A stretch of 64,000 bases of DNA, taken from IMG/VR virus record IMGVR_UViG_3300039412_000320; one strand, given 5' to 3'. Source of the DNA: a virus. The notes beneath the pieces are model-generated. The model made no database searches. It saw only the letters and a list, made by a program, of their open reading frames with translations, and was not told the DNA's origin. Below are positions 1-64,000 of the stretch, in pieces. The first letter of the stretch is position 1. The number at the start of each line of letters is the position of its first letter. Made by a program: the position numbers and the translations under genes.

Positions 1-826
1 TACCATTCACCAGAGGAAGGCTGCTTCCAAGCACAGTGCTGGTAGTCGTATCCGTTACCGTCACCGTCCCCGTGGGGATGGAAGTGGGGCTTCCTATGGC
101 ATTGATGGAGATAAGCAACGGGGTAGAAGCAACCGAAGGGTTGGGGTTGGAGGATATGATAACTGACGGCAAAGCGACGGGTCCTGCTACGATGGCATTC
201 CACGCCGGGGTGGAAACCCATGTCGCTGTTCCAGTGACCGTGTTGGGTGGAGGACTGCCAGCGGCGGAGAGGAATGCGGCATAGGCGTAGTTAGCGGGAC
301 TGCCGGTGTGGGTGGAATCCCCAAATTGATGTTGCAGCGTGTAGCCAGCGGGGAGGAACCCGCTTCCCGTTACTTGCTGGTCCCACACGAATGCCACTAA
401 AGCCAAACTGGGACTGAGGACGGGGAAACTCGCCGTCATCGTACCGGTGGTGCTGGGAGTGGGGTTGGCTTGTCCACTGTGATAAGTCAAAGTGGGCTGC
501 CCGGTAATCTCTACCAGAATTCCATCTTGTACAGCGGTGTAAACTTCACTGTCACCACCGATGTAAAAGTTATAAGTCTTGCCATCTCCAGCTTGAGCAA
601 CCCTTGTGAAAGCCGCCCCGCCATAGGTAGACTCATCGAATCCATTGAAATAGTTCCAATTGCCGGGACCGAGGACGTTAAGAATACCATTGCCGCTGCC
701 CACTGTGAAGAACAGCATGGTGTTACCGGGGGTAGGGGTATTGGGGAAACTGGTATTCCAACTCGCTATGGGTCCATCATTGCGAGAGTAACCCACCTGC
801 ACGATTTGTGGCGCTTGTAAGGGCAT
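1..826 (-). CDS. 5'-partial at window edge? No: 3'-partial gene (start ATG at 826, continues past coordinate 1); Gly/Thr/Ser/Pro-rich protein, tail-fibre-like structural protein
   Basis: Manual translation of minus strand from ATG 826..824 (MPLQAPQIVQVGYSRNDGPIASWNTSFPNTPTPGN...) is open for every codon checked; start overlaps stop of upstream gene as TAATG; composition typical of fibre/structural proteins. Not in ORF track because no stop inside window. Confidence 0.45.
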   Translation of the reverse strand, partial: MPLQAPQIVQVGYSRNDGPIASWNTSFPNTPTPGNTMLFFTVGSGNGILNVLGPGNWNYFNGFDESTYGGAAFTRVAQAGDGKTYNFYIGGDSEVYTAVQDGILVEITGQPTLTYHSGQANPTPSTTGTMTASFPVLSPSLALVAFVWDQQVTGSGFLPAGYTLQHQFGDSTHTGSPANYAYAAFLSAAGSPPPNTVTGTATWVSTPAWNAIVAGPVALPSVIISSNPNPSVASTPLLISINAIGSPTSIPTGTVTVTDTTTSTVLGSSLPLVNG

Positions 827-1113
827 TAGAGAGCCTCCCCATATTGGAACGGTGGGCTAGGCATGTGGTGGATGACCTGTATCACCCCTTGCAGGTTGAA
901 TGGCCGGTTGGCGAACAGCAGGTACCGATTGTTTACGGCGTCGTAAGAGGCATTTTGAATCACCAGCGGTATGCCATCCACGTAAACCTCCACATCCACC
1001 GTGGGGTCAAACTCTACCGGTGGGCTGGTAGGCTTAATAAGCGGACCGATGTAGTTGCCCAACAGGAGTTGGATGCGGTTCGGATAGGGCGCATTGGTAA
1101 CGGCGGTCAGCAT
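826..1113 (-). CDS. hypothetical protein (95 aa)
   Basis: ORF in track; start overlaps stop of 1113..2324 gene (coupled). Confidence 0.5.
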   Translation of the reverse strand: MLTAVTNAPYPNRIQLLLGNYIGPLIKPTSPPVEFDPTVDVEVYVDGIPLVIQNASYDAVNNRYLLFANRPFNLQGVIQVIHHMPSPPFQYGEAL

Positions 1114-2324
1114 TATTCCCCACTCTTAAGGAACTTCAAAAACTCCTCGTATCCTTCTTCGGAAGCATACTTCTCAATCATGCTCATCTCCAAGCTTGTG
1201 CGCTTGCGGAGTAGTTTCTTCCACCACTCACCGGGTATCTTCTCCTGCAATCGCTCTAACCACCGTCTCGGTAGGTTGGGCTTCTTCCTTTGCTGGAGCT
1301 TCTTCTCCTCTTGCTTGATAAGGTCGTTAAGGTCCGGCTGTTTCTTGGGAGCGGGGGCTGGCGGCGGTGTAACATTTGTGGCCTTTTCATCCCGTTTGAC
1401 TACCTGCTGCTTGGGTGGTTGCGGAGGCTTGGGGGCCGGTCCCTTCGGCTTTGGCTCCATGGGCTTGGGAGCCGTGGGTTTGTTCAACGGCGGCAAGGCG
1501 GGCGGTTGCTCCCCCTTACCCCTCTCCAACTTCTCTGTCTCTTCCTCCAGAAGGTCGTCAATCATCTCCTTCTGCTTGTCGGGGTCTGTGGTCTTCACAA
1601 TCTGGTCAATTTCTTTGCGCTTGCGCATCTCTTCCTGACGCTCTTCCAGCCGAATGCCCTTCTCAGTTGGGATTTCCTCCTCCAACCGCTTCTTGTTAAG
1701 CTCCACCTGCCGCTTGCGCACAATGTTCTGGATGTTGTGCTGAATAGCGGGCAGGATGCGCTCGAAGACCGTCTTGACATGCTTGCAGATAACGAAGTTG
1801 CCCCGGAGGTCTAACCGTTCTGTGGGGGCTTGTAGAAGAGGCCGGGGCTGCCCATGCAGACCGTCCCGCTGGTGGAGATTCCATTGTGCGCCCCAATACA
1901 GGAATGCCGGGCAGGAGCAGGAGACCCGGACATCAATCTGCCTTGCATCCTGTGTTTTTTCCACCTGACTTAAATCGAACTGGACTTGCACGTCGTGTCC
2001 CTTGGGGTCGGAATAATTCTCGTGGCAGGTGACCTTGTAGGCAAGGTAAAGCTCCTTGGGTTTGGAACTGATGGGCTTGACCTCGCACCCGGCCCGGCGC
2101 TTGACGGAAAAAGCATTGGTCTGCCGGATGAGTTCCGGGAGGGAGATAGCTACCTTGGTGAAAGGTGGAGAAGTGAGGGATATGGGGATGCTAATCCATG
2201 TGCCTTGTTTGACTTGCCATGGGTTATATCCTCCCAGAATCATCCTGCTGAGCATCTGCTGGAAGTCTGGGGTCCAGTCTGGTGCGAGATTTTGCACTTG
2301 CGCTAAAGCCATAGACTCCCTCAT
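1113..2324 (-). CDS. SWIM zinc-finger-containing protein with Pro/Lys-rich low-complexity C-terminus
   Basis: CxCx(n)CxH pattern (VSCSCPAFLYWGAQWNLHQRDG...FVICKHV) characteristic of SWIM domain; long ORF. Confidence 0.6.
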   Translation of the reverse strand: MRESMALAQVQNLAPDWTPDFQQMLSRMILGGYNPWQVKQGTWISIPISLTSPPFTKVAISLPELIRQTNAFSVKRRAGCEVKPISSKPKELYLAYKVTCHENYSDPKGHDVQVQFDLSQVEKTQDARQIDVRVSCSCPAFLYWGAQWNLHQRDGLHGQPRPLLQAPTERLDLRGNFVICKHVKTVFERILPAIQHNIQNIVRKRQVELNKKRLEEEIPTEKGIRLEERQEEMRKRKEIDQIVKTTDPDKQKEMIDDLLEEETEKLERGKGEQPPALPPLNKPTAPKPMEPKPKGPAPKPPQPPKQQVVKRDEKATNVTPPPAPAPKKQPDLNDLIKQEEKKLQQRKKPNLPRRWLERLQEKIPGEWWKKLLRKRTSLEMSMIEKYASEEGYEEFLKFLKSGE

Positions 2325-2341
2325 CTATGAACTGAAAAGCC

Positions 2342-2971
2342 TTATGAATTTCTCTTACGTTTTCCCCGCATTAAGGAACGAGAGATTTCGGTGTGTTTCT
2401 TACCAAAAAACGGGTTACTTTTACCGGACATTTTTTGACGAATTTTTTCCTTTGTTGTTTCACTACAGGGAATCCCCCTCCTCCCTTTACTAATTTTTCG
2501 GCATGTCTCTAAGGTTGGTTTTCTTCCAAGACTAGCTTGACGTAGCTTTTCTATGGTTTCCAGCGTAAATTTCCGACTACTATTCCACTCTCTCAATGCC
2601 TGTTTTCGTTCTTTGGTCCACGCTTTTGACATTTTTAATCTGGTCTCAAGGGTGTGACTGCCGGTGTGTCCCTCCCCTCCGCTACAAAGATTATATCCTA
2701 TATCCGGGTAGTGAGACCCGAGAGCTTTTATAAGAAATCGTTCCCAATAACAAAGTTCTTCATTGGTTTGTAAATCAGAAATTACGGGGTGAATGCTCCA
2801 TACAGAAGAGGGACATTTCCACATAGCTGAAAAAAGGTGGGACCCTCCTCGATAATTTCCTTTGATAGCATCGCTAATTTTTCTTCTTAAATAAGAGTTT
2901 AAGTTAGAACCGATGGTTTTGCCAACGTAGATTTTAAGAGTTTCTTGATTAACTATGATGTAAACAAACAT
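2342..2971 (-). CDS. GIY-YIG homing endonuclease with NUMOD3-like repeats
   Basis: N-terminal IYVGKT...GYN motifs; C-terminal repeated ETRxKxSxAxxG modules (NUMOD3-like). Confidence 0.85.
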   Translation of the reverse strand: MFVYIIVNQETLKIYVGKTIGSNLNSYLRRKISDAIKGNYRGGSHLFSAMWKCPSSVWSIHPVISDLQTNEELCYWERFLIKALGSHYPDIGYNLCSGGEGHTGSHTLETRLKMSKAWTKERKQALREWNSSRKFTLETIEKLRQASLGRKPTLETCRKISKGRRGIPCSETTKEKIRQKMSGKSNPFFGKKHTEISRSLMRGKRKRNS

Positions 2972-3019
2972 TTGAAAAATCCCCTATAAAGCCTTTAGGT
3001 AGTTCAAAAGTTACGGGGA

Positions 3020-5933: not shown

Positions 5934-6584
5934 ATGCAAATCTACTTGGTGACTAATCTTGTTAACAACAAGATGTACGTCGGACAAACAATTCAGAGCG
6001 TAGAAAGGCGATGGCGGAAACACCTTAGCAACGCTAGGATGGGGCAACAAGACCGTCTCTATCAGGCCATCCGCAAATATGGACCAGAGGCATTTATAGC
6101 AGAGGGCCTAACCCGATGTAATAGCCTGGAACAGATGAACAACCTGGAGAAGCTCTGGATTGCCTTGCTTGGGACTTACGATTACGAATCAGGATACAAT
6201 ATGACGCCTGGAGGAGACGGACGCCCCGTACTTTGCACAGAAGAAACAAGAAAAAAGATAAGTAAAACACGCAAGGGCCAACCTTGCCCGCAATCAACGA
6301 AAGAGGCGGTTGGTAAACGGCATAAGGGGAAACCCAAGCCCATATCTCAACGGCAGAAGATGGCTGCCCACTGGAACACTGAAACTGAACAGGGTAGAAA
6401 CCGACGTTCAAAACAAGCGGATGTTGCCCGCCAAGTTAACGCTATCGAAAATGTCAAACTTAAGGACTACACCTGTCCCACCTGTAAGAAAGAGTTTAAA
6501 CAGGTGACAAAGGGAGCATATGGCGGTCATCGCAAGGCGTGTCTGTTTTGGAATATTCCCTATGAGGGTACTGTTATCGAATAA
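5934..6584 (+). CDS. GIY-YIG homing endonuclease (free-standing, opposite strand to neighbours)
   Basis: MQIYLVTNLVNNKMYVGQT...RWRKH...GYNMTPGGDG motifs; NUMOD3-like C-terminal modules. Confidence 0.85.
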   Translation: MQIYLVTNLVNNKMYVGQTIQSVERRWRKHLSNARMGQQDRLYQAIRKYGPEAFIAEGLTRCNSLEQMNNLEKLWIALLGTYDYESGYNMTPGGDGRPVLCTEETRKKISKTRKGQPCPQSTKEAVGKRHKGKPKPISQRQKMAAHWNTETEQGRNRRSKQADVARQVNAIENVKLKDYTCPTCKKEFKQVTKGAYGGHRKACLFWNIPYEGTVIE

Positions 6585-9967: not shown

Positions 9968-10777
9968 CTATACAGAGGTTTCAATAGCAATGACTTTTAA
10001 CTGAAACCTTCCCGCTCGTCGTAAATAAGAGATAAACTCATCATATGTCTTGTCTTTTTTCATGTAGTTACAGTCCTTGCAAGCTGGGAGGACATTACCT
10101 GGAATATACCCCAGTGAATTATCTTTACGGTCTACACCGTTGCAGATGTAACCGCCATTATAGCGCTTGGAGCCCCTTCTTTCTGATGGTGGACTCCCGC
10201 AATAGTGACATGGTTGTTGAGTAATCTCGAAAAACTCGTCATTACTCAGTCCCCATTCATAGCCTCGCCTCTTTGCTGCTGCCTGATAAGTAGCCAGCAA
10301 GTGGTTACGCATACAGAGACCCAGCTCCAGTTTGCGGCTGTCAGTTCGCCAGCACCCACAACTCTTAGTCCTTCCCATAACCAAAGCATTGGTCCGTACA
10401 ATAACCTCTTTTCCACAATCACAGACTGTTAGCCACCTTTTGACCGCTCGCTGACTTGGGTCAAAATCGTAAAAGCGAATAACGGTTAGGCGATTGAATT
10501 TATGCCCTAATAAATCTGACTCTAGCTGCCTGTTTTTCTTCTCCCGGAGTAACGCCATAGTTTCCCTGGCTCGTTCCCGAGACAAACATCCGCAGCTTTG
10601 GGCACCTTTCCCACGAAGGTTGGCACTAAGGTTGACCGTCTCATTCCCACAATCACACCTACAGACCCACCTTGCCTGCCCACCTTTATGGTTGGGAGCC
10701 CCCTCAACAACAATCAATCGTCCAAACCGCTGACCTATCAGATTTATTTTTCTCATACCTAATAAACCCATAGTCAT
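9968..10777 (-). CDS. HNH homing endonuclease with N-terminal repeated zinc-binding loops
   Basis: Two GxRFGRLxV...WxCxCDCG...SCGC modules then CHYCG...NGVDRKDNSLGY...CKDCNYMK HNH core; paralog of 57781..58485. Confidence 0.8.
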   Translation of the reverse strand: MTMGLLGMRKINLIGQRFGRLIVVEGAPNHKGGQARWVCRCDCGNETVNLSANLRGKGAQSCGCLSRERARETMALLREKKNRQLESDLLGHKFNRLTVIRFYDFDPSQRAVKRWLTVCDCGKEVIVRTNALVMGRTKSCGCWRTDSRKLELGLCMRNHLLATYQAAAKRRGYEWGLSNDEFFEITQQPCHYCGSPPSERRGSKRYNGGYICNGVDRKDNSLGYIPGNVLPACKDCNYMKKDKTYDEFISYLRRAGRFQLKVIAIETSV

Positions 10778-14454: not shown

Positions 14455-15348
14455 TTAAGGTACTGATAAATGAGAATTTATTTCAATGTGTTTCTTACGG
14501 GGGTGGCTCTGGGCCTTTGCCTGTTTCTTCCCGACCTTCGGGTCACACATAGGACTACGCCCACCATAACGTTCCAAGTTAGTGGTATCTCGTTTTGATA
14601 GTAAAGTTGAACTAAGCATAGGGTTGCTTACACCATATCTAGCAAGAAGAGTATATTTTGTCTTTCGCTTAATTTCCGCATCACTAAAAGTCCGTAGATT
14701 CTTCCAATGACTTGGACATTCACAGAAAGTATTAGAACAGCACGGCCTCTCATATTTCCCTAACAAAAACTTGGCATTGGTACCACAGCCGTAAGAACAC
14801 AGCTTAGAGGAGTCATCTATAGGCTTGGATATCATCTTTTTCTTACACTGACAATAGGCGGGACATGCCCCGTGATGGCTGGAACAGCAGGGGTTTTCTT
14901 TATTTCCAATCAAGAAAGCGGCGGCCAACCCGCATCCATACCGACATAGAAGGTGAGAATCGGGAAGGATGGAAATGAAATGGTTCTTTGAACCCCTTGG
15001 TCGCCCTGTATTGCCTTTCTCCTTAGCGATACGACCGGCCTTTCTAGGGTCGGACAACCCTTGTTCGTTGATGTATTTGAAACCACCCTTGCCGCCTTCA
15101 TGCAGATTGTAGCAAAGCGGGTCCTGCCGGGCATTCCGTAATAATTCTACCTCCTTCGTATATGCCTCTGCGGAAACCTTAAATGTAAATAGGATGTCTT
15201 TCTTGAAGTTATGCTTACCATACTTCCTGACGGCACGCTTAATGGCAATCCCCGAGCCAAGATAATTGTCATTTGGATTATTAGTTTCGTGAACGCCGTA
15301 GTAGTAACGGCGATTGAGAAGATTGATAACCTTATAGACGTTGAACAA
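14455..15348 (-). CDS. GIY-YIG homing endonuclease
   Basis: MFNVYKVINLLNRRYYYGVH...YLGSG...CYNLHEGGKGG motifs; Cys-rich C-terminal DNA-binding region. Confidence 0.8.
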   Translation of the reverse strand: MFNVYKVINLLNRRYYYGVHETNNPNDNYLGSGIAIKRAVRKYGKHNFKKDILFTFKVSAEAYTKEVELLRNARQDPLCYNLHEGGKGGFKYINEQGLSDPRKAGRIAKEKGNTGRPRGSKNHFISILPDSHLLCRYGCGLAAAFLIGNKENPCCSSHHGACPAYCQCKKKMISKPIDDSSKLCSYGCGTNAKFLLGKYERPCCSNTFCECPSHWKNLRTFSDAEIKRKTKYTLLARYGVSNPMLSSTLLSKRDTTNLERYGGRSPMCDPKVGKKQAKAQSHPRKKHIEINSHLSVP

Positions 15349-18748: not shown

Positions 18749-19201
18749 TTACGCCACCGCCTTCATAACAAGAGGTTTGTGGGAATTCAGGTAAGTTATC
18801 AAGCATTCAAGGCGAGAAACGGAATCTTTAACTGACCCAAGAGCGACATTACATGAATGACACAAGACCCCTCTGATTTCCTCGGTTTGATGATTGTGGT
18901 CCAACGACCACCCGTTTTTGTTTCCTGAGTTTGTAGAGCCACAACATGCGCATTTTAAACCTTGAGCCTCAAGAATCTTCTGTTTGTCCTCTATTGTTAT
19001 TCCGTATTTGTGACGAAAATTCCTTATGGTGTTCTTTCTCCTGATTTCAGGTCCTTTTTCTGAATGGTACCGATGAAGACCTCTTTTGTTTTGGCATAAT
19101 TTGCAATAACGGTCAAACCCATCCGAAGAGCGAGCAAGGCGATGGAAATTCGCCTCGTTCACTTCTTTCTCAGTCCGGCACATTTTGCAAAACTTCATCA
19201 T
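18749..19201 (-). CDS. HNH / endonuclease VII-like nuclease
   Basis: CKMC...CKLCQ zinc ribbon then CACCG...LDHNHQTEEIRGVLCHSCNVALG (DHxH...N...CxxCN HNH core). Confidence 0.75.
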   Translation of the reverse strand: MMKFCKMCRTEKEVNEANFHRLARSSDGFDRYCKLCQNKRGLHRYHSEKGPEIRRKNTIRNFRHKYGITIEDKQKILEAQGLKCACCGSTNSGNKNGWSLDHNHQTEEIRGVLCHSCNVALGSVKDSVSRLECLITYLNSHKPLVMKAVA

Positions 19202-43909: not shown

Positions 43910-43973
43910 GGAACCTCACTTTGTTCGTAAACGTGACCTAAATGACTACCGAAATTATACTTAGGAGGAGCCT

Positions 43974-44606: not shown

Positions 44607-45055
44607 CTAGACATATTACGTTCACCAAAAAATATACCCTTGGGGTTACCGGTTTCTAATCTTGTCATTTCCTCTACGATTTTACTACTTACACTTTCAG
44701 ATAATTGATTTGTAGATAAAGCATCCCGAAGAGCAAACCACGCTTGTCCTACCGGGGTTTTATCCCACAACCATTGACGATACGCTTCTACAGTTTTATG
44801 CCCTTTTCTACAGTTACAGGTTTTACAACAGGCTACCAAATTAGATAGTTGGTTTCCTCCTTCGGGGTTTTGATGGTCTCTAGTATAGTTATGACTCAAA
44901 CTATTTGGGTCACAGATTAAGACTACGCCACAATACCAGCAACGTTCTTTACTCAATTGTAACGTTTCCAAGGACGAGGGGAACCTCATATTAAATCTTC
45001 TTGGAATATCCCTCTGTTTCCGATACTCATCGCAATAAGCGTCGTAGTTGGACAT
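44603..45055 (-). CDS. HNH endonuclease
   Basis: CWYCG...HNYTRDHQNPEGGNQLSNLVACCKTCNCRKG. Confidence 0.75.
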   Translation of the reverse strand: MSNYDAYCDEYRKQRDIPRRFNMRFPSSLETLQLSKERCWYCGVVLICDPNSLSHNYTRDHQNPEGGNQLSNLVACCKTCNCRKGHKTVEAYRQWLWDKTPVGQAWFALRDALSTNQLSESVSSKIVEEMTRLETGNPKGIFFGERNMSS

Positions 45056-45066
45056 GTGTCCTCCTG

Positions 45067-47517: not shown

Positions 47518-48391
47518 CTCTTTGCTCCTTTATTGCGGCCTCGTACTGCTTGCGGAGAGCGGTGTCGGCCTTCTGCCGGGCCTCCTCCGCCAGAGCTTCC
47601 TCATAAAGCGCCTTCGCCTTGGCGATGTGCTCTTCGGACTGCGGCACCCCGGCTGCGTTGACGCTGAGGAACAGCCACAGGATGTCCGCCTTGCCGACCT
47701 TGGTGGAATCCAGCATCACGTACTGCACATTGGTATCCTCGAACGCATGAACGTCAGCATTGGAAAGCTGGTAGAAGGTCTTGCCCTTGTAAGGGAAACG
47801 CCCCTCGATATACTCCCGGATGGAGACGATACGCTGCTTGCCGTCCACGATTTCCAGTCGGTACTCCGGGTAGGGATATTCCACAAAGACAAACTTGCCG
47901 ATGTCGGTCCGATTGAAGATGGAGTCAATGAGCCGCTGCTTATCTTCGAGGGTCCACACGTATCCCCGCTGGTACTCCGGGTTGTCGATGTATCCCCGGC
48001 GATAGCCGGTCAGTATCATGCCATCCATGCCGGTGGTGACGTATTGGGCGTGGATGCGGGGGCGAGCAAAGTTGGTGTTCTCTTGCAGGCACTTGGGGGT
48101 AATCTGGTTCCACCAGACAATACGGGGTTTCCGACCGCAGTCAACCTCGTTCCCATAGACATGTTGAACGTCGTGGTAGGAGATGTGGTAACTCATCCCG
48201 TTATCAAAGATTTCCTCTATCCGGGCGTCCTTTAGACCACCGAGAATGACTTCCTCTCCCACCTTGTAGAGATAGGTGGGGTTCGGCGGCACAACCCAAT
48301 CCTCACCTTGGGAATGCCAGTTGCGCTTTTCCCACGCCAGCCACTCGGCGTAAGTCTCGGGTTGCTTCTCTTTAGGTTGCCGTTTCGCCAT
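47498..48391 (-). CDS. DUF262 (ParB-like / GmrSD N-terminal) domain protein
   Basis: DNPEYQRGYVWTLEDKQRLIDSIFNRTDIGKFVF matches the QR..VW...LIDSI core; start set to MAKRQPKEK with GAGGGGG upstream. Confidence 0.65.
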   Translation of the reverse strand: MAKRQPKEKQPETYAEWLAWEKRNWHSQGEDWVVPPNPTYLYKVGEEVILGGLKDARIEEIFDNGMSYHISYHDVQHVYGNEVDCGRKPRIVWWNQITPKCLQENTNFARPRIHAQYVTTGMDGMILTGYRRGYIDNPEYQRGYVWTLEDKQRLIDSIFNRTDIGKFVFVEYPYPEYRLEIVDGKQRIVSIREYIEGRFPYKGKTFYQLSNADVHAFEDTNVQYVMLDSTKVGKADILWLFLSVNAAGVPQSEEHIAKAKALYEEALAEEARQKADTALRKQYEAAIKEQRDGNQGA

Positions 48392-48902
48392 TCTTAACCC
48401 CCTCATTAAAAGAAACCAGCCTGTATTGTCCATAGCTGGTTCTCTCTAACCAACCCTTCTCTCGCAGAGCCGAAATCACATGGTCGGCAGCCTTTTCCGT
48501 TCCTTCGAGAAACTTGATGATTTCAGAACGGCTCGTCCTTTTTCGTCCCTGCTGCTCCAGTGTCAAAACCACTTTAGCTTCCTGACGTGATAACGTTCGA
48601 GGAGTATGGCAAAGTTTAATCGGTTTGTTCGCTATCAGAGTTTCTCCCATATTTTTCAAATCATCTGGCGACAACCGATACCACTCATGATGCTCATGCT
48701 TCTCTGCGAACAACTCGTGTAACCGTGTCTCTTCCCTTGGGGCATTTTCAACATAGGTACAAGCTGCCAACCTTAAAATCACGGGGGAACCAACCTGTAA
48801 GTGTTTCAAACGATTCTCAGATGGGTGATTCCGTGAAAACCCAATCTTAAAAAGACCTAACTCATCATTTCCAATGACATACACAAAACCTTTAAGCCGC
48901 AT
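48372..48902 (-). CDS. T5orf172 (GIY-YIG-related) domain protein with C-terminal winged-helix-like region
   Basis: GFVYVIGNDELGLFKIGFS...RLKHLQ pattern; start set to MRLKGF with GGAGGT upstream (track start is TTG). Confidence 0.6.
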   Translation of the reverse strand: MRLKGFVYVIGNDELGLFKIGFSRNHPSENRLKHLQVGSPVILRLAACTYVENAPREETRLHELFAEKHEHHEWYRLSPDDLKNMGETLIANKPIKLCHTPRTLSRQEAKVVLTLEQQGRKRTSRSEIIKFLEGTEKAADHVISALREKGWLERTSYGQYRLVSFNEGVKNGETAT

Positions 48903-48994
48903 ATGACCTCCATTAAATATCAATGGAAGTCTAAATCTTTCAATAGCTTAATCCCAAAATCCCCCCGATACAAAGGGTTTCGTGTAGAGGAATC

Positions 48995-53522: not shown

Positions 53523-53960
53523 TTAGTGCTTTTCATCGGGATATAGCCGAAGTTTCTTACCGGCCAATACCTCGATTCGTTCCCGATACAAAATCTTGCC
53601 GTAGTCATCTTCAATCTGAATGGTGTGCGACCCGGCCTTGAGCCAAAACTTCCGCAAGGTGCCGGTCATTCCGGCGAATCCCCCGTCCACGATAACCCGG
53701 TTACCCACCTTGGTGGTTTTTATCTCCACCCTGCCAGCGGCGGCAACCACGATGTAGTTGTTCCCCCACGGGGGAACGCAGTTGATGCCGAAGCACTGCG
53801 CCGGGTAAGCCACAGGTCCATAGTAGAAGACGTAGTGCGGGTGACCCCACCAAGCCGAAGCCGGGACACTGACCGCAAGTACCAGTACTAACGCTGCAAT
53901 AAACTTTGAGAGCTTGTTCATGTGAACCTCCACACCATTAGATACGGGAGACCAAACCAC
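53523..53960 (-). CDS. secreted protein with PEGA-like domain
   Basis: N-terminal signal-peptide-like MNKLSKFIAALVLVLAVSVPASA; C-terminal RVIVDGGFAGMTGTLRKFWLKAGSHTIQIEDDYGKILYRERIEV fits PEGA pattern. Confidence 0.45.
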   Translation of the reverse strand: MVWSPVSNGVEVHMNKLSKFIAALVLVLAVSVPASAWWGHPHYVFYYGPVAYPAQCFGINCVPPWGNNYIVVAAAGRVEIKTTKVGNRVIVDGGFAGMTGTLRKFWLKAGSHTIQIEDDYGKILYRERIEVLAGKKLRLYPDEKH

Positions 53961-54717
53961 TGTTATCGTCGTTTCGTCGTTTCATTCTTTTCATCATTCT
54001 GCGGACCGCCGTCTCGGTGACTCCAAGCTCTATCGCCACGGCGATGTTGTTGGAAGCCTCTACTCGGCGTTTGAGTTCTTCATAGGATGGCCAAAAAGCC
54101 TTGCAATTCAACCCAACCCGGTCGTGCCCGGCACAGCTTTTGCATTTTTTAGACGGCTTGCTAACCCTCTTCCCGCAAGCAGAACAATACCGATAGATGT
54201 TCACCCCCCTATTATTCCTTCCCGTGAAAGTAGAACTCTGACTGTCGCAGTTAGGGCAAAGTAGACGCAAGTTGCCTATTCGGTTGTCGTTGTTCACACC
54301 ATTGATATGGTCAAGACGGAGCACTAATGGTCTGCCGTTCCACTCAGGGAGAAGTCCGCACTCAAAGCACTTGTTCTCAAGCAGACCGTCGTGGAGCAAC
54401 CGGCGTTTAAGTTGGCACCTGCTGTAAGGTGAATTTTCTACTAGAACGGTATCTAATGGTACAGCTTTGCGGTGCCCGCCTGAACCTTTCCTATTTCCTA
54501 GACCTCTGGGAATATGGGAAATGTCTAGACCATCTTCTTTGACCCTCCGAAGCACGGTATGGAAGTTCCCGCCGATATTCCTAAGACCGCAACGACTTAC
54601 CATCTCCCTAATGGTTCTAGATGTGCGGACAATCTCCGTAAATTCCTCAGATGGAATAAACCAGATTCGACTACGTTTTTTTCTCTTTAGACTCATACTA
54701 AAGAGATACGAAGTCAA
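53938..54717 (-). CDS. HNH homing endonuclease
   Basis: CFECG...LRLDHINGVNNDNRIGNLRLLCPNCDSQ; paralog-like to 55789..56631. Confidence 0.75.
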   Translation of the reverse strand: MTSYLFSMSLKRKKRSRIWFIPSEEFTEIVRTSRTIREMVSRCGLRNIGGNFHTVLRRVKEDGLDISHIPRGLGNRKGSGGHRKAVPLDTVLVENSPYSRCQLKRRLLHDGLLENKCFECGLLPEWNGRPLVLRLDHINGVNNDNRIGNLRLLCPNCDSQSSTFTGRNNRGVNIYRYCSACGKRVSKPSKKCKSCAGHDRVGLNCKAFWPSYEELKRRVEASNNIAVAIELGVTETAVRRMMKRMKRRNDDNSGLVSRI

Positions 54718-54748: not shown

Positions 54749-54826
54749 TGGTTCCAGAGGGAGGACTCGAACCTCCAGTCTCAACGGGTTCAAAGCCCGG
54801 CGTGTTACCAATTACACTACTCTGGA
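54749..54826 (-). tRNA. tRNA gene; apparent anticodon UUG (Gln?), assignment tentative
   Basis: Hand-folded cloverleaf: acceptor TCCAGAG/CTCTGGA, D-arm GTGT-AATTGGTA-ACAC, anticodon loop CTTTGAA, T-arm GGAGG-TTCGAGT-CCTCC, CCA encoded; one mismatch at top of anticodon stem; 7-nt variable loop. Confidence 0.6.
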
Positions 54827-54833
54827 ATAAAGC

Positions 54834-54921
54834 TGGATGGGAAGGAGGGACTCGAACCCTCACAAGCATTTACTGTCTCCTGATTCAAAGTCAGGCGTGT
54901 TACCAATTACACCACTTCCCA
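54834..54921 (-). tRNA. tRNA-like gene with 17-nt variable arm; identical D-arm and anticodon loop to preceding tRNA (apparent UUG)
   Basis: Acceptor TGGGAAG/CTTCCCA, D-arm GTGT-AATTGGTA-ACAC, anticodon stem CCTGA/TCAGG loop CTTTGAA, variable AGACAGTAAATGCTTGT, T-arm GAGGG-TTCGAGT-CCCTC, CCA encoded. Confidence 0.55.
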
Positions 54922-54960
54922 ATCTATGTCAAACGCATCAAAAATGGTGCATTTGGAAAC

Positions 54961-55046
54961 TGGAGCCGGGTGCGGGATTTTAACCCACGTGGGATTTCTC
55001 CGCCTGCTTACAGGACAGGTGCCATCGTACACTAGGCTAACCCGGC
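54961..55046 (-). tRNA. tRNA-like gene, type II (14-nt variable arm, 3-bp D-stem); anticodon unresolved by hand
   Basis: Acceptor GCCGGGT/ACCCGGC, T-arm GTGGG-TTAAAAT-CCCGC, CCA encoded; anticodon stem CCTGT/GCAGG gives loop CCTGTAA with C at position 33, which is atypical. Confidence 0.45.
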
Positions 55047-55498
55047 TAACGACCGATACCACCACTTCTACATGCTCTACAAAATCTCTGGACTCCCGAG
55101 GGTTGCCACTTATTAAGATTGAACAATCCCTTACCCAGAAACTTTTTATGTCCATAGCACCATGCTTCTCCTTCTGGTGCTGTGTTTACATGATTAATTC
55201 TAGCTCTTTCTAGTTGTTCTCTTAACTTGGGAATATTCCTTCGTGCCGCCCTAATGTTGCATGACTTGTGAGAAAAGGCAATGTTACCTAAATCCCAAAA
55301 CAGGTCAGGCGACATATCCAGCCAAGGTTTCTTGTGTTCAATAGAGAACTGAGCGGCGTTCTCAATCTTTTTGCCACATTGAAAGCAGCTATCCAAATTA
55401 AGTTGCTTCGCCATATGGAAAAGTAGTTGCTTCAACAACCTTCCACTTGCTGTTCCAAAAGGCATCCCCAACTGATTTCTTACCTTATAGTGGTCCAT
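55046..55498 (-). CDS. HNH endonuclease
   Basis: CFQCGKKIENAAQFSIEHKKPW...GNIAFSHKSCN; stop abuts 5' end of tRNA at 55046. Confidence 0.7.
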   Translation of the reverse strand: MDHYKVRNQLGMPFGTASGRLLKQLLFHMAKQLNLDSCFQCGKKIENAAQFSIEHKKPWLDMSPDLFWDLGNIAFSHKSCNIRAARRNIPKLREQLERARINHVNTAPEGEAWCYGHKKFLGKGLFNLNKWQPSGVQRFCRACRSGGIGR

Positions 55499-55581
55499 AC
55501 TCCACCCCCAATAAAGGTGGAGATAGTTGAGAATTTGGGAATTACAGTTGTCTCCATTCTAAAAAAATACTCAATAAAACT

Positions 55582-55657
55582 TGGAGCCCAAGGTCAGAAT
55601 CGAACTGACGACCCCTCCCTTACCAAGGGAATGCTCTACCACTGAGCTACGAGGGCT
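55582..55657 (-). tRNA. tRNA gene, apparent anticodon GGU (Thr)
   Basis: D-arm GCTC-AGTGGTA-GAGC, anticodon arm TTCCC-TTGGTAA-GGGAG, T-arm GTCAG-TTCGATT-CTGAC; acceptor stem shows two mismatches in my hand fold. Confidence 0.55.
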
Positions 55658-55662
55658 AAAAA

Positions 55663-55738
55663 TGGAGCCGATGAGCGGCCCTGACCCGCTGACCTCTCGC
55701 TTACGAGGCGAGTGCTCTGCCACCTGAGCTACATCGGC
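55663..55738 (-). tRNA. tRNA gene, apparent anticodon CGU (Thr)
   Basis: Perfect acceptor GCCGATG/CATCGGC, D-arm GCTC-AGGTGGCA-GAGC, anticodon arm CTCGC-CTCGTAA-GCGAG; T-loop GTCAGGG non-canonical; CCA encoded. Confidence 0.6.
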
Positions 55739-55788
55739 ATAGGGACGCCCCGAGGGCGACCCCAACTCCTCCCACTATGGTGGGTGAG

Positions 55789-56631
55789 CTAAAAACTTGG
55801 TCCAGTCGGGAAGAGTCGAACTTCCGTTGTGCGATTATCAGTCGCAAGTTCTACCGTTGAACTAAGACTGGTCTTCAAATTTCCGTGTCTTACAAGCGCA
55901 CGGAACTTCCCGGAACAAGACTGGTTGCAAAACTTCAACTTTCCTTCTTCGTGAGGACGGTCTTTTAGCTCTTGATGGCAGAATCCGCACTCTGCTAGTT
56001 TACACGCCTCGGCTGTCATTCCACCATGTCGCTCCAAAAGTGCCTTACAGCGACGATAGTTTAAGGCATTGCGATTCTTCCCAAGAGACTCCAAGGCTGC
56101 GCCAATGCTACGAGTCTCAAGTAGAGCTACTAAAAGCCGCTCATCAGTTATTTCGTAATCGCCTTTCCTATGACCCCTTCCCCTTCCTTTACCACAGTAT
56201 GTCGGCGTCTGGCTGTGGCAATTAGGGCATAGACCTCGAAGGTTCTCACGCTGATTATTTTGCGTATCCCCGTCAGCATGGTCAACCTGCAACGTCAGAG
56301 GAGTTCCCATCCACTCCTTAATTCCACAACGAGAGCAAGCCTTGTCTTGCTCAACGATAACCCGTTTCTTCTTGCTCTCAACGGTCAAGGAATCAAAATC
56401 CGCTTCCAACAACTGTCTAAGCTTGGTTTGGCTTGAGCGCCGACCCGCTCTTTCCCTGGCCTCCTGACTTACCTTATGACCATAAAGCTTAAGGGATATT
56501 TTTTTGTTCTTCTCCTTCCGATTCTGTGTTGAAACAAAATTTCTAGCACAAAACTCGGAACAGAACCGCCCTGACCCATACGACCCATCATGCTCTTTCT
56601 TGCACTTCTCGTTCTCACATTGAACCACCAT
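55789..56631 (-). CDS. HNH homing endonuclease (ORF reads through tRNA 55808..55881 before reaching a stop)
   Basis: CSRCG...LQVDHADGDTQNNQRENLRGLCPNCHSQ; last 30 codons are encoded by the tRNA sequence. Confidence 0.7.
   Translation of the reverse strand: MVVQCENEKCKKEHDGSYGSGRFCSEFCARNFVSTQNRKEKNKKISLKLYGHKVSQEARERAGRRSSQTKLRQLLEADFDSLTVESKKKRVIVEQDKACSRCGIKEWMGTPLTLQVDHADGDTQNNQRENLRGLCPNCHSQTPTYCGKGRGRGHRKGDYEITDERLLVALLETRSIGAALESLGKNRNALNYRRCKALLERHGGMTAEACKLAECGFCHQELKDRPHEEGKLKFCNQSCSGKFRALVRHGNLKTSLSSTVELATDNRTTEVRLFPTGPSF
55808..55881 (-). tRNA. tRNA gene, apparent anticodon GAU (Ile)
   Basis: D-arm GTTC-AACGGTA-GAAC, anticodon arm TGCGA-CTGATAA-TCGCA, T-arm GGAAG-TTCGACT-CTTCC, CCA encoded; overlaps 3' end of HNH ORF 55789..56631. 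Confidence 0.6.
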
Positions 56632-56672
56632 TATAGTATGCTCCTATAATAGTGGTTCAAAAGTCCAATCTT

Positions 56673-56747
56673 TGGTGCGCCCGGAAGGACTCAAACCTTC
56701 GTGACTCCCCTATCGAGGGAGCATATTCGTCGCTATATGACAGGCGC
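56673..56747 (-). tRNA. tRNA-like gene, atypical (D-loop lacks GG; anticodon loop TCGATAG with C33); apparent anticodon GAU
   Basis: Acceptor GCGCCTG/CGGGCGC, T-arm GAAGG-TTTGAGT-CCTTC, CCA encoded; may be degenerate. Confidence 0.4.
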
Positions 56748-57780: not shown

Positions 57781-58485
57781 CTAAACTTTAATTTCTTCTC
57801 GCATCTGACGGATAAGTTTTCCAATTCGCAGCCACTCCTCGTAGGTGAAGTGGTCGAGCTTAGCTTTATTACAACGGGTACAACTTACTACCAAGTTATT
57901 TTTGGAATATCCAAGCGATGAATCCTTACGGTCAAGGTTTGTCGGTCCTTTCTTACCGACATTCCACTTCGTCCAAGAAACCATGTCCCCACAATAATGG
58001 CAGTTGGATACAACGGTATAAGAAATAAAATCAGCATATGAAAGGTCAAAAGGTACACTGCGTTTAGCTGCACTCTGACGCACCCTGTTATAAAGAGACT
58101 CGAATGGTTGTTTACGGCTTGAAAACCCACGGAAGCATCCACAACTTCTAACTCCATGTATCATCAGCAAGCTTGTTGACTTAACAACCTTGACTTTACC
58201 ACAACCACAACGGCATTCCCATTTGGGGGGCTGACGACTGACCATCCTAAGTGCTATAAGTTTCCCGAAAACCCGCCCGGTTAGGTCTTTAGGGAGTACC
58301 TTCATTCCTAAATTACATCCACAACTCCTTGTTCGCTTGCCACGAAGGCTACCTGTTTGTATTATTTTTGTGGTTCCGCAATCACAGAGGCATAACCATC
58401 TTGTTTTTCCATATAAATTCTCAGCTTTAGATTTAACAACCAACTTTCCAAACCTTACTCCTACCAAATCAACTGGTCTTCCCAT
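57781..58485 (-). CDS. HNH homing endonuclease with N-terminal repeated zinc-binding loops (paralog of 9968..10777)
   Basis: GVRFGKLVVK...WLCLCDCG...SCGC, second module ...WECRCGCG...SCGC, then CHYCGDMV...NLDRKDSSLGY...CTRCNKAK. Confidence 0.8.
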   Translation of the reverse strand: MGRPVDLVGVRFGKLVVKSKAENLYGKTRWLCLCDCGTTKIIQTGSLRGKRTRSCGCNLGMKVLPKDLTGRVFGKLIALRMVSRQPPKWECRCGCGKVKVVKSTSLLMIHGVRSCGCFRGFSSRKQPFESLYNRVRQSAAKRSVPFDLSYADFISYTVVSNCHYCGDMVSWTKWNVGKKGPTNLDRKDSSLGYSKNNLVVSCTRCNKAKLDHFTYEEWLRIGKLIRQMREEIKV

Positions 58486-60614: not shown

Positions 60615-61391
60615 TTATATTACCAATTTTTGTCCTCTTTTACTCATTTTGATTAGATAATTTGGGTCAGACCACAACTCCTTTGAAAGCTTACTCATGC
60701 TAGCACGATATTCCGGGTCAGTCCATCGCTTTTTAGCCGCCTCCGACCTTCTAATTTGTTCTTCCGGTTTAGATAGAGCCTCACTGATTTTTTTACCCCT
60801 CTTTGCAAGTCGTTCGGAATCAGACCAGATTTCTTTCCCAATTTTACTTTTTTTAGTTACGACTTCTACTCTAATCTGTGATTTTTTTTGAATTTCAGAT
60901 AGTTTATCCTTAAACTCAGGGTTAGACCACCTTCTCTTAGCAATTTCCGCTTGTTTAGAGCGTTCTTCATCAGCCCATCCCCTTTTCATGGCTTCTGATT
61001 GTCTGATACGAAATTCAGAATCTTCCCACATTTTCTTACTATGGATAGATATTTTTTGACGAGTTTCTTTGGAACATGGCCCCGTGAATCCTTCTCCTCC
61101 TCGGCAAATGTTATAACCATATTCAGGGTCTTGGGCTTTTAGAAACTTGATGAAATCTCGTTCGGTCTCGTCAAGTTCTCCTCGGGTTTGAATGTCAGAA
61201 CGAAGGGCATGAATAGACCATAGGGTAGCTTGTGGGTACTTCCGCATGGCATTAAAAAGGTGGGATTTTCCGTTTTTTTGATGCCTTGCACCAGACAGTT
61301 TCGTTTGAAGATACTTTTTAAGGTTATTTCCCTTATGCTGACCGACATAATATTTGCCGGTCTTATGGTTAACGATGAGATATATGAACAT
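60615..61391 (-). CDS. GIY-YIG homing endonuclease (MFIYLIVNH paralog family, copy 3)
   Basis: MFIYLIVNHKTGKYYVGQHKGNNLKKYLQTK...GYNICRGGEGFTGP; C-terminal repeated W(S/T)DPEY modules. Confidence 0.85.
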   Translation of the reverse strand: MFIYLIVNHKTGKYYVGQHKGNNLKKYLQTKLSGARHQKNGKSHLFNAMRKYPQATLWSIHALRSDIQTRGELDETERDFIKFLKAQDPEYGYNICRGGEGFTGPCSKETRQKISIHSKKMWEDSEFRIRQSEAMKRGWADEERSKQAEIAKRRWSNPEFKDKLSEIQKKSQIRVEVVTKKSKIGKEIWSDSERLAKRGKKISEALSKPEEQIRRSEAAKKRWTDPEYRASMSKLSKELWSDPNYLIKMSKRGQKLVI

Positions 61392-61942: not shown

Positions 61943-62356
61943 CTACCAACTTGACCAAATCGTGTCCGGGGTCTCCATCAGCTTCTCCAACTCGGCACGG
62001 TTCCGGTGCTCGTCGCACAGCATCCAAATGTGGCAATCCACTTCTACAAACCTGCTGGTCCAAGCCTTGCACACATCGCACTTTCTCTGTGTCCCGCTAT
62101 CCTCGCCCTCACGGTACTTGTGGTCAAGCAGGTATTGCTTGTAGCACTCGCCTGCTTCCTCCTTCGTAGCGTGCCCATCGGTGTGATACTTCTCTTTGAA
62201 CTTCCCATACCGGAGGTTATAGCGCTCCACCTCTCCGTCGCTGAACACTGACCCTTTCTTGAATTCCTCATACGGACGACAATAACCCCACGGGTGACCA
62301 TTACAGGTGAAGTCCCATCTGCCGTCTGTTCGCTGTCGTGCCGTATAGTAGTTCAT
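61943..62356 (-). CDS. hypothetical Cys/His-rich protein (137 aa)
   Basis: ORF in track; ATGA overlap with upstream gene. Confidence 0.5.
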   Translation of the reverse strand: MNYYTARQRTDGRWDFTCNGHPWGYCRPYEEFKKGSVFSDGEVERYNLRYGKFKEKYHTDGHATKEEAGECYKQYLLDHKYREGEDSGTQRKCDVCKAWTSRFVEVDCHIWMLCDEHRNRAELEKLMETPDTIWSSW

Positions 62357-63249
62357 GCTGGCTCCTGTATAAGGAACCGAAAGGGGATAAACTCAATGGG
62401 GTTATTTTCCCGTTTCCTGATATTGTTGCCCATCACGGCAACCGTAAACTCCCAACCAGCATCTTGGCAAGCCCGACCTTTACGGATAATGAGGTCCAAG
62501 TCACGCTCAAACCACTTCCTTGCCTTGACCTCCACAATTGAATTGTGGGTAGGGAGAACCAAATCTGGGTGGTAGCGGCGTCTCCTTCCAGCCTTGTCCG
62601 TGTACCAGAACGATGGCTTGTTACGCCACTGGAAGTCCTGTTCTTTGTAGCCATCATTAAGCATATGGGTAACCACATATGGCTCATAGCCTTGGAGGAA
62701 CACGATTGCCCCGGAGGGAAGGACGAAGACCTTGTGCTTGAAGCAGGAATCCACATTGCGCTGGAAAACATCGGGGTCTTGGATAGGCCAGTCAGTACCA
62801 TATTTAGCTTGACTTGTCATATTTCTCTTCTTCAAGTCCCCACCAAATGTCCCATTTTCCATTCGTGTGGCATTGGCCTTTTCTAACACGCCGGGAATTT
62901 GGCTAATGTGGGTCACCCCGTGACGGGTCTGTAGGGTTTTTTTATACTTATTTTGAACCTTGACAGACCGCATTACCTGTTCAGCTTTGTAGCGTTTCAA
63001 GTTGGTCTTACGACGTTTGGCATCGACAGCGGGGTTCTTGGTGGGCACTGGGACACCATAGTGCTCCATCATAGTGGCAGTATATTTCGCTCGTCCCTTT
63101 TCAATCATAGCAGGACACCCCTGCCATAGACGGGAGCATGTCCAACGTGGTTTATAGGATTTATCAGAGTAAAACTTAGCTGGCTGGCCACAACCCCAAG
63201 CACACTTTTCGGTTTTTGAAGAAATCTCTAGTTCAATCATAACTTTCAC
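62353..63249 (-). CDS. PD-(D/E)XK-family nuclease with N-terminal CxxC and repeated DNA-binding-like modules; possible homing endonuclease
   Basis: YHPDLVLPTHNSIVEVKARK gives PD...EVK signature; N-terminal CAWGCG...WTCSRLWQGCP; three (K/H)(Y/H)GV...P modules. Confidence 0.45.
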   Translation of the reverse strand: MKVMIELEISSKTEKCAWGCGQPAKFYSDKSYKPRWTCSRLWQGCPAMIEKGRAKYTATMMEHYGVPVPTKNPAVDAKRRKTNLKRYKAEQVMRSVKVQNKYKKTLQTRHGVTHISQIPGVLEKANATRMENGTFGGDLKKRNMTSQAKYGTDWPIQDPDVFQRNVDSCFKHKVFVLPSGAIVFLQGYEPYVVTHMLNDGYKEQDFQWRNKPSFWYTDKAGRRRRYHPDLVLPTHNSIVEVKARKWFERDLDLIIRKGRACQDAGWEFTVAVMGNNIRKRENNPIEFIPFRFLIQEPA

Positions 63250-63334
63250 CTCGTATACTAAATACTGTGAAAGTCATCATCTTGTAGTTTACTAAAGGAC
63301 TTACCAAAAACTAAGATAAGTCCTTTAGAATCAA

Positions 63335-64000
63335 CTAAAAGGAAAAAATCCAACTGAAGATTATATCTATTCCGGGAGGTAACAAAAGTGGAGGAAGTGT
63401 CTTATAGTTCAGAAGTATGACCGTCTGCTGCGATGCTTGAACTGTGGCATAGGAGGACGGATTGCCATTGAAGTACGGAGCGGTCAACATGGTGTAGCTG
63501 CCCATGTTGGCGATACCGCCGCCGATGAGGCCCATTTCCCGGATGCCTTGGTTGATGTTGTTGGTCGTGCTGTTTACCGTGGTCTGAAACTCCACGTTGG
63601 TGGTCAGCACCGCCTGCGGGTTCCAGTTACCGCTGCTGTCCTGAGTAACGAAGTTCACCCGGCTCAACTGCACACGGGCGAGCGGCTGGATGAGTTCCAC
63701 CTGAGTGGCCGTTTCCACGGGTTGGGTAGTTGGTGCCCACGTGGGACTGCCAGCGCCCAATGCCAACCCCCAGACGCCCCATGCCGGTTCCGTAGCAGCG
63801 ATGCTGACCGGCTGAGTCTGCGGCGGGGAGAGGTTCAGGGGAGAAGCACACGCCATGAACTGGGCAAAGAGCCAACTGGAGATGGACGTGATGATATTGT
63901 GCTCGGAGTAAAGGACCTCTCCGGTGTCCGGGCGGTAGACAGTGATGTTCCCCTTCTTTATCGGAGGAGGAACTTTCTCCCCCCACTTTCCCCGTGCAGC
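63335..64000 (-). CDS. structural-looking protein, probably 5'-partial (start upstream of window end)
   Basis: Track ORF 63335..63856 starts at an ATG without SD; same frame stays open with no stop up to 64000. Confidence 0.4.
   Translation of the reverse strand, partial: AARGKWGEKVPPPIKKGNITVYRPDTGEVLYSEHNIITSISSWLFAQFMACASPLNLSPPQTQPVSIAATEPAWGVWGLALGAGSPTWAPTTQPVETATQVELIQPLARVQLSRVNFVTQDSSGNWNPQAVLTTNVEFQTTVNSTTNNINQGIREMGLIGGGIANMGSYTMLTAPYFNGNPSSYATVQASQQTVILLNYKTLPPLLLPPGIDIIFSWIFSF

Follow-up and report, generated by a model that had tools for sequence, protein, structure and literature searches.

The 64,000-nucleotide stretch of viral DNA analysed here (IMG/VR record IMGVR_UViG_3300039412_000320; hereafter "the window") carries 19 open reading frames (ORFs) that resemble homing endonuclease genes (HEGs), as well as one intein. 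We propose, with a probability of roughly 0.85, that 19 free-standing HEGs of at least five nuclease classes, together with the intein, have colonised the core structural, replication, nicotinamide adenine dinucleotide (NAD)-salvage and transfer RNA (tRNA) regions of this phage by intron-less homing. All 19 ORFs had been picked out in an earlier inspection of the DNA without database searches (the sequence-only reading), and we located every one of them. Profile searches and related analyses (Pfam, PHROG, NCBIfam, PDB or fold evidence) support 18 of the 19, which fall into the GIY-YIG (8), HNH (6), Endonuclease VII (2), T5orf172 (1) and DUF7487 (1) families. The outcome that would have spoken against the sequence-only reading, a lack of profile support for the majority of the ORFs, did not occur. 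PHROG scans of about 40 other ORFs, and an iterated hidden Markov model census of all ORFs of at least 70 codons, revealed no further HEG. Below, each HEG is named by the window position at which its coordinates begin.

Most HEGs are absent from a close relative

We compared the window with a sister genome, represented by IMG/VR contigs, among them 3300041809_000571 and 3300014160_000001, assembled independently from two samples. The sister aligns to 73.8% of the window with a mean identity of 92.6%, and nearly every break in the alignment coincides with a HEG. Fourteen HEGs (2342, 9968, 14455, 18749, 23318, 24827, 27676, 36037, 53938, 55046, 55789, 57781, 60615 and 62353) are absent from the sister, as is the intein; two are replaced and three are shared, for a tally of about 5 HEGs in the sister against 19 in the window. 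The sister's empty sites usually hold only 0-70 bp. At the site of 40370 the sister carries a different GIY-YIG gene (278 residues, 29% identical), and at the site of 48372 it carries a 110-residue ORF of the Endonuclease VII type. Common to both genomes are 5934 (69% protein identity) and the convergent pair 43974/44603.

Homology between the two genomes stops at the start codons, ribosome-binding sites or stop codons of the neighbouring genes, and the HEGs are thus intergenic cassettes. Most run in the same direction as the genes beside them and leave little space in between. We took the junctions from the ends of BLAST blocks, as a global alignment split insertions spuriously wherever a spacer had been replaced. 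A search of the window with Rfam at the gathering threshold returned tRNAs only, with no group I or group II intron, and the genes flanking the HEGs are separate and intact in relatives; on these grounds we rejected the idea that the HEGs are intron-encoded.

The sister also has insertions of its own, of 1,103, 1,293, 420, 981 and 6,863 bp, at window positions 828/838, 6542/6583, 12537, ~32350 and ~37510, respectively. By inspection these comprise a tail-fibre-like sequence, a collagen-repeat protein, small ORFs and a membrane/OmpA-like block, and one of them is an in-frame 140-residue stretch of a 920-residue TPR protein. This extra DNA does not match the window's HEG families and is not HEG-like by inspection, no profile search having been made there. 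Additional GIY-YIG genes lie just outside the window, at 5921-6589 of L187 (the source contig) and at 4809-5183 and 19277-20038 of sister contigs B and D, respectively, so that the load of HEGs extends past the window, though less densely.

The HEG-bearing state is derived at several sites

More distant related loci give a direction to these differences. The genes flanking 18749 are adjacent in 26 of 28 such loci, those flanking 23318 in 20 of 22 and those flanking 27676 in 22 of 25, while at 9968 fewer than 300 bp separate the flanking genes in 20 of 36. Spacers at these empty outgroup sites measure 34-131 bp. Tunturi_5, a phage of Acidobacteriota to which the source phage is distantly related (see below), has no annotated or detectable HEG in its 41-kb syntenic structural block. 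Judged by these outgroups, the HEG-bearing state is derived at 18749, 23318, 27676 and 9968. Sites 2342, 5934 and 24827 are hot spots, occupied by different HEG families in different members of the clade; of 63 related loci at 5934, for example, 24 carry a GIY-YIG gene and 14 are empty. Comparison with HEG-less homologous loci had been proposed in the sequence-only reading as the way to recognise insertions, and it bears the proposal out: 14 ORFs and the intein are absent in the sister, and most outgroup sites are empty. The HEG ORFs also differ from other genes in base composition, with a mean guanine-plus-cytosine (GC) content of 44.7% compared to 53.1% (Mann-Whitney p=2e-9).

A probable recent transfer and divergent flanks

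One tract of the window, positions 43665..45058 (1,394 bp), is 100% identical to the sister. It spans the first 245 bp of a gene for a UvrD-like helicase, the adjoining spacer, and the HEGs 43974 and 44603, both of which the sister carries without a single difference. No other stretch of the window matches the sister perfectly over more than 302 bp, and the flanks of the identical tract show ~90% identity on the left and 79% on the right. The tract has the look of a very recent transfer in which co-conversion extended to one side only. Around HEG junctions in general, DNA 800-1600 bp away is 94.2% identical to the sister and DNA within 50 bp is 86.6% identical, compared to 92.8-93.8% at HEG-free gene boundaries, which served as the control. 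The identical tract and the divergence at junctions are both as expected of co-conversion, and this evidence is correlative. The two HEGs of the tract would thus sit at the edge of an exchanged segment, as HEGs do in ICP1 and T4-like phages (PMC10448857). At the level of genome comparison, recent gain, loss and replacement of HEGs between genomes is shown: presence and absence differ between close relatives, a 100%-identical tract contains one pair of HEGs, and the outgroup sites are mostly empty.

GIY-YIG genes and their insertion sites

The eight GIY-YIG ORFs counted earlier are all supported, by Pfam or PHROG profiles and by paralogy and invariant residues. Conserved in all eight are residues Y4, Y15 and G17 of the GIY/YIG motifs, the catalytic Glu77, and Tyr93-Asn94; in 24827, 60615 and 14455 the position of the catalytic arginine either varies or cannot be aligned. 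Four of the eight (2342, 5934, 40370 and 43974) exceed the Pfam GIY-YIG gathering score, mostly with NUMOD3 repeats. Two others (24827 and 60615) fall under this cut-off and 27676 has no Pfam GIY-YIG match, and these three match PHROG 314/7168 ("homing endonuclease") at E-values of 1e-16 to 1e-23.

The GIY-YIG + NUMOD3 gene 2342 (2342..2971, minus strand; Pfam GIY-YIG 23.0 bits, cut-off 22.6; NUMOD3 3e-13) lies in an exact 695-bp insertion (2324-3018) without target-site duplication, at a point where the sister has 0 bp. HEG 5934 (5934..6584, plus strand; Pfam GIY-YIG 4e-09) is antisense to its neighbours, and its sister homologue is only 69% identical in protein. HEG 14455 (14455..15348, minus strand) ends in a Cys-rich C-terminal module and matches PHROG 314 at 1e-28, with weak matches to SegE_GIY-YIG and TIGR01453; the sister has 62 bp at this site. 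Two GIY-YIG + NUMOD3 genes lie on either side of the UvrD-like helicase gene (41108-43909): 40370 (40370..41068, minus strand; Pfam GIY-YIG 5e-10) downstream of it, and 43974 (43974..44606, plus strand; Pfam GIY-YIG 1.4e-10), which is convergent with 44603 and matches the I-TevI catalytic domain 1MK0 with E=8e-12.

Three GIY-YIG HEGs belong to the MFIYLIVNH family. HEG 24827 (24827..25531, plus strand; Pfam GIY-YIG 19.3 bits, under the cut-off; PHROG 314 1.5e-16) sits within a 1,535-bp insertion (24783-26318) that also bears an ORF for a His_Phos_1 domain, where the sister has 64 bp. HEG 27676, a GIY-YIG + NUMOD3 gene (27676..28554, plus strand; NUMOD3 6.5e-08; PHROG 314 7e-23), forms a 924-bp insertion flanked by a 13-nucleotide direct repeat, GGATACAAAAYTA. 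This repeat is a copy of the last four codons and stop codon of the upstream gene, and because it duplicates that gene end, the TAATG stop/start overlap with the gene downstream of the HEG is kept. HEG 60615 (60615..61391, minus strand) matches PHROG 314 at 9e-17 and PHROG 7168 at 2e-12, with a weak Pfam GIY-YIG match; it is absent from the corresponding sister site (177 bp), and a related sister copy found elsewhere is 77% identical over 115 residues.

Near these insertions we observed two histidine phosphatase (His_Phos_1) sequences. In ORF 28554-30281, an in-frame insert of about 216 residues (~29040-29689) occupies a linker; the sister orthologue precisely lacks it, reading ...APAKFGKQQAKSK... 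compared to ...APAKSG[His_Phos_1]QKAKSK... in the window. The separate ORF 25725-26327, in the 1.5-kb insertion of HEG 24827, is 28% identical to the first. The His_Phos_1 sequences may be cargo moved along with HEGs.

HNH, Endonuclease VII and other nuclease genes

The sequence-only reading had counted about nine HNH/Endonuclease VII-like ORFs. Eight of these stand, two as Endonuclease VII and six as HNH proteins, and the ninth, 36037, lacks profile support. Both Endonuclease VII-type genes are on the minus strand: 18749 (18749..19201; Pfam Endonuclease_7 1e-21) lies directly downstream of the tail sheath gene (19214-22837), and 23318 spans 23318..23785 (Pfam Endonuclease_7 3e-20). At these sites the sister has 56 and 70 bp, respectively. 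Among the HNH-type genes, also on the minus strand, 9968 (9968..10777; PHROG 374 "HNH endonuclease" 4e-37) lies just upstream of the prohead protease gene (9059-9961), and its paralogue 57781 spans 57781..58485 (PHROG 374 3e-31). Neither matches a Pfam family at E<=0.01, and the sister has 283 and 127 bp in their places. HEG 44603 (44603..45055, minus strand) is an HNH_5/IscB-like HNH gene, with a Pfam HNH_5 score of 30.9 bits (cut-off 27.5) and a sub-threshold NCBIfam IscB match (E=6e-7, 28.9 bits compared to a cut-off of 175). The remaining three HNH genes are described with the tRNA array.

An exact 21-nucleotide repeat, GTGGTATACTGTAGGTGGAGG, occurs at 39484-39504 and 57733-57753 (minus strand), for which the chance expectation is 0. 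It resembles an extended -10 element and a Shine-Dalgarno sequence just upstream of an ATG, and its second copy is 14 nucleotides away from the junction of HEG 57781.

The assignments of one T5orf172 ORF and one PD-(D/E)XK-like ORF both held up. The former, 48372 (48372..48923, minus strand), matches the GIY-YIG-related Pfam families MUG113 (7e-11) and T5orf172 (1e-08) and has a C-terminal winged-helix-like region. The latter, 62353 (62353..63249, minus strand), belongs to DUF7487, a Pfam family of unknown function. With a restriction-endonuclease-like fold in structure-based comparison and an acidic/Lys catalytic signature, DUF7487 is identified here as a PD-(D/E)XK-fold nuclease; a PDB sequence search with 62353 gave only chance-level matches. 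The N-terminus of 62353 (residues 2-105) shares a Cys-rich module with the GIY-YIG HEG 14455 (residues 170-279), at 32% identity over 112 residues, and the opening ~50 positions of the DUF7487 profile match this module as well. One genome thus joins a presumed DNA-binding module to two unrelated nuclease domains.

The gene 36037 (36037..36954, minus strand) is a putative HEG whose family is uncharacterised. Its product combines a zinc ribbon and NUMOD3-like repeats with an invariant C-terminal DH...N...N motif, and shows a weak fold match. The NAD-salvage genes for NAMPT (33691-35187) and a NUDIX/nucleotidyl-transferase fusion protein (35099-36040) are adjacent (33691-36040), and 36037 is inserted directly upstream of both. 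Two small ORFs without family matches, 37017-37355 (112 residues) and 61943-62356 (137 residues), share the clean insertions of 36037 and 62353, respectively, and both are absent in the sister.

HEGs within a tRNA array

Two HNH genes break up, and a third adjoins, an array of tRNA genes at 54749..56747 on the minus strand (Gln, Gln, Thr-UGU, Thr-GGU, Thr-CGU, Ile, Ile). ARAGORN identified seven tRNAs, six of which were confirmed by Rfam; the upstream tRNA-Ile (56673-56747) is an ARAGORN call under the Rfam gathering score. The sister has eight tRNAs in ~1 kb without intervening ORFs. At the end of the array, after the tRNA-Gln pair, lies 53938 (53938..54717, minus strand; PHROG 10822 "HNH endonuclease" 1e-37, with weak Pfam HNH_3 and HNH matches), which is absent from the sister's tRNA block. 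HEG 55046 (55046..55498, minus strand; Pfam HNH 23.6 bits, cut-off 21.4) lies between tRNA-Thr genes, with its stop codon abutting tRNA-Thr(UGU). Between the two tRNA-Ile genes is 55789 (55789..56631, minus strand; PHROG 10822 9e-26; HNH_3 23.8 bits, cut-off 24.8), whose 3' end runs ~75 nucleotides into the tRNA-Ile at 55798-55871. In T4, SegB is located in the tRNA cluster, and the window HEGs resemble it in lying inside a tRNA gene cluster.

Window and sister differ greatly in their tRNA sequences, and the four tRNA-Ile genes of the two genomes all differ strongly from each other. The tRNA-Gln at 54834-54921 (88 nucleotides) and the tRNA-Thr-UGU at 54961-55046 (86 nucleotides) are unusually long for their type.

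An intein in the UvrD-like helicase

The one intein noted earlier is present at 42266-43132 (minus strand), in motif III of the UvrD-like helicase. It is a precise in-frame insert of 289 residues (CQPAGTKV...EVPVGN) between VGDLAQ and SIYAFQGA, and UvrD orthologues without the intein read VGDLAQSIYAFQGA across the site. Cys1, the terminal Asn and the Ser at +1 are all in place. Blocks A, B, F and G, identified by eye and by conservation, are shared with a divergent intein at the same site in the relative L170; the relatives L171 and L173 have none. Phage replication proteins are known to carry inteins in their helicase and ATPase motifs. The window intein resembles these in its precise in-frame insertion in a catalytic motif and in its polymorphism between relatives, and it is presumed to splice.

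Paralogue groups

The paralogue groups named in the sequence-only reading (the MFIYLIVNH trio, 40370/43974, 9968/57781, 18749/23318 and 53938/55789) are real, though old and divergent. Members of the trio are 58-71% identical in amino acid sequence, with 24827 at 58-64% to 27676 and 60615; including 2342 alongside the three, identities range over 41-71%. The pairs 40370/43974, 9968/57781 and 18749/23318 each show ~33% amino acid identity, and 53938/55789 are 49% identical over 51 residues. The inference drawn from these groups, active intragenomic duplication, is not borne out: the best nucleotide identity between paralogues is 72-81%, and most pairs are at ~33% in protein. As this repeat search found no paralogue pair above 81% nucleotide identity, we rejected recent intragenomic duplication.

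HEG density and comparison with known systems

The sequence-only reading put the density at about one HEG per 3.4 kb, several-fold denser than T4, and our count agrees, with 19 HEGs plus the intein in 64 kb. The HEG ORFs make up 13,200 bp, or 20.6% of the window, and 22% with the intein. Across 127 related loci, each of at least 10 kb, the density of these HEG families has a median of 0.048 per kb and a maximum of 0.42 per kb, the latter over 14 kb, compared to 0.30 per kb over the 64 kb of the window. By this measure the clade is HEG-prone, with the window's lineage at its top end. A literature search for the published record in HEG density yielded only two benchmarks: T4, the usual one, with 15 HEGs in 169 kb and 11% of coding sequence (PMC10448857, PMC2988022), and the Pectobacterium phage CB7, with 23 HEGs in 142.8 kb and 7% of the genome, among the largest numbers reported (PMC7344957). 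Comparing the 64-kb window to these whole genomes, its density is ~3.3 times that of T4 per kb and about twice that of CB7, and its share of sequence (20.6-22%) is about twice that of T4.

The window's HEGs resemble the T4 seg and mob genes in combining GIY-YIG (with NUMOD3) and HNH classes, in their intergenic positions beside conserved genes, in their presence/absence polymorphism among close relatives, and in signs of flanking DNA co-conversion. They differ from the T4 genes in that no intron-encoded HEG was found in the window, that five nuclease classes stand side by side, and that they are known here from sequence alone. As in CB7 and ICP1, many HEGs lie near essential genes, their content varies among close relatives, and they mark the limits of exchanged segments (PMC7344957, PMC10448857). 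In CB7 the HEGs belong to the HNH or LAGLIDADG classes, with several residing in introns or inteins, whereas those of the window are mostly free-standing GIY-YIG, HNH and Endonuclease VII genes. ICP1 carries T5orf172 and IPA-HNH HEGs, and T5orf172 is treated there as a HEG class (PMC10448857).

For the Endonuclease VII type, the closest parallel is F-CphI of cyanophage S-PM2, a homing endonuclease with an Endonuclease VII motif. Its described arrangement is shared by 18749, 23318 and the sister's 110-residue ORF, each being a small, free-standing, polymorphic protein with a C-terminal Endonuclease VII domain (PMC6083498). Compared with F-CphI as described there, the N-terminal regions of 18749 and 23318 are Cys-rich and zinc-ribbon-like. 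Turning to the other fold, homing endonucleases of the PD-(D/E)XK fold include I-Ssp6803I and the EDxHD/Vsr-like I-Bth0305I. In contrast to these, 62353 is free-standing rather than intron-encoded, the fold it matches best is that of TnsA, which is not a known HEG, and it has a Cys-rich N-terminal module in common with a GIY-YIG HEG (14455).

We envisage the mechanism as intron-less homing of the kind known from seg and mob genes in T4. In a cell co-infected by a related phage that lacks the HEG, the nuclease would cleave the empty allele within or close to the conserved neighbouring gene. Recombinational repair would then be templated by the HEG-bearing genome, copying the HEG and a variable stretch of flanking DNA into the recipient. 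In this scheme, the cleavage activity and its targets are predicted from the genes and their positions, and co-infection is the presumed route of transfer. The window is a new and extreme case of an already known type of element, and reveals no new mechanism.

Alternative explanations

Could the sister instead have lost its HEGs wholesale? HEGs are known to decay and disappear, sites 2342, 5934 and 24827 are occupied in many relatives, and the sites at 53-64 kb have no outgroup. Loss on this scale is nevertheless improbable, given that most outgroup loci are empty at 18749, 23318, 27676 and 9968, that Tunturi_5 is HEG-free over 41 syntenic kb, that the GC content of the HEG ORFs is off by ~8 points, and that the sister's empty sites retain 0-70 bp and no HEG remnants. 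Recent duplication or transposition within this one genome would account for the existence of four paralogue groups and for a feature of the MFIYLIVNH group (2342, 24827, 27676 and 60615), whose catalytic domains are 41-71% identical and whose C-terminal regions differ, as would be expected if one nuclease module had been paired repeatedly with new DNA-binding modules. Against this, nucleotide identity between paralogues does not exceed 72-81% even over the best 86-222 nucleotides, most pairs are at ~33% in protein, and a sister MFIYLIVNH copy at another locus is 80% identical to 24827 over 123 residues, above any paralogue in the window. As the sister copy is closer and the same HEG families occur in many related loci, the paralogues could just as well have entered the genome one by one out of a common pool, and we regard within-genome duplication as unlikely, if less so than wholesale loss.

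A different objection is that many of these nucleases are domesticated phage genes, acting as resolvases, packaging HNH proteins, factors in anti-defence or competition, or in maintenance of the tRNA region. Endonuclease VII and HNH proteins do serve housekeeping roles in some phages, and, since the HEG-rich genotype is clonal and recovered from many samples, its load is at least tolerated. HEG-derived genes are reported to protect ICP1 against satellites (PMC10448857), and T-even SegB to help immune evasion (PMC13096335). Yet 14 of the ORFs are dispensable in a sister ~93% identical; the HEGs are scattered singly among core genes and not gathered in an island; different families replace each other at the same site; and their base composition is foreign. 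Domestication is therefore a quite unlikely account of the whole set, while selfish homing and incidental benefit are compatible. Finally, the density could be an artefact of chimeric metagenome assembly or of over-called weak domain matches, as the sequence comes from a metagenome and several Pfam scores are under gathering thresholds. We rejected an assembly artefact because contigs from at least ten samples (JGI, ENA and Logan) are 99.98-100% identical to the window where they overlap it; the weak Pfam matches, in turn, are backed by strong PHROG matches, paralogy, catalytic residues and fold evidence. An artefact of either kind is hardly credible.

Several points count against intron-less homing by 19 HEGs and the intein, or narrow its reach. 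No profile assigns 36037 to any nuclease family, and a PDB sequence search with it gave only chance-level matches. The intein has no intein, Hint or endonuclease match in Pfam, NCBIfam or PDB sequences, no recognisable LAGLIDADG or HNH domain in its middle region of ~140 residues, and a penultimate Gly in place of the canonical His; unlike the inteins of phage replication proteins in these three respects, it may be immobile or even non-splicing. For 53-64 kb the sister is the only comparison, and gain and loss are inseparable there. The gradient of flank divergence could in part reflect relaxed constraint near insertion-prone spacers. The identical tract at 43665-45058 might stem from a strain-chimeric sister assembly, which is unlikely because two independent assemblies agree. 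Finally, just one more GIY-YIG gene occurs in the 10 kb that follow on the source contig, and with 64 of 338 kb seen, HEG density across the genome is probably lower than in the window.

A stronger version of our proposal is that the window records a recent burst of HEGs, with at least 13-15 gains since the split from the sister, a load of ~22% above the published figures found, and two unrecognised HEG families (DUF7487 and 36037). We offer this tentatively and at somewhat less than even odds. If it is true, the HEG-rich and HEG-poor sister lineages would form a natural system for asking what sets the HEG load of a phage; the cause of variation in HEG density between phages is an acknowledged open question (PMC10448857). 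HEGs shape the mosaicism of phage genomes and also yield enzymes for genome engineering. The window adds an extreme data point from the almost unstudied soil jumbo phages related to a phage of Acidobacteriota, and similar HEGs are frequent in related IMG/VR contigs from soil and peat metagenomes. The HEG-poor sister supplies empty target alleles for ~15 elements, along with one apparently fresh transfer, and DUF7487 and 36037 are two candidate nuclease families with a possible role in homing.

The source phage

The window is part of an uncultured, myovirus-like jumbo phage of soil with a genome of ~338 kb. Its relationship to the Acidobacteriota phage Tunturi_5, a jumbo myovirus of 309 kb (PMC11924767), is distant: the major head protein, encoded at 4003-5004 on the minus strand, is 69% identical to its Tunturi_5 counterpart. 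A megablast search of 50,697 GenBank phage records with 25 kb of the window found a sole nucleotide match, a 140-bp segment of the major head gene in Tunturiibacter phage Tunturi_5. An ENA metagenome contig of 338,351 bp (ERZ27250039 k141_400892) contains the window at 100% identity, and contigs of at least ten other assemblies (JGI, ENA and Logan) are 99.98-100% identical to the window where they overlap, together covering ~36 of its 64 kb. Because so many assemblies agree this closely, we consider the HEG-rich arrangement real and the phage clonal and widely sampled.

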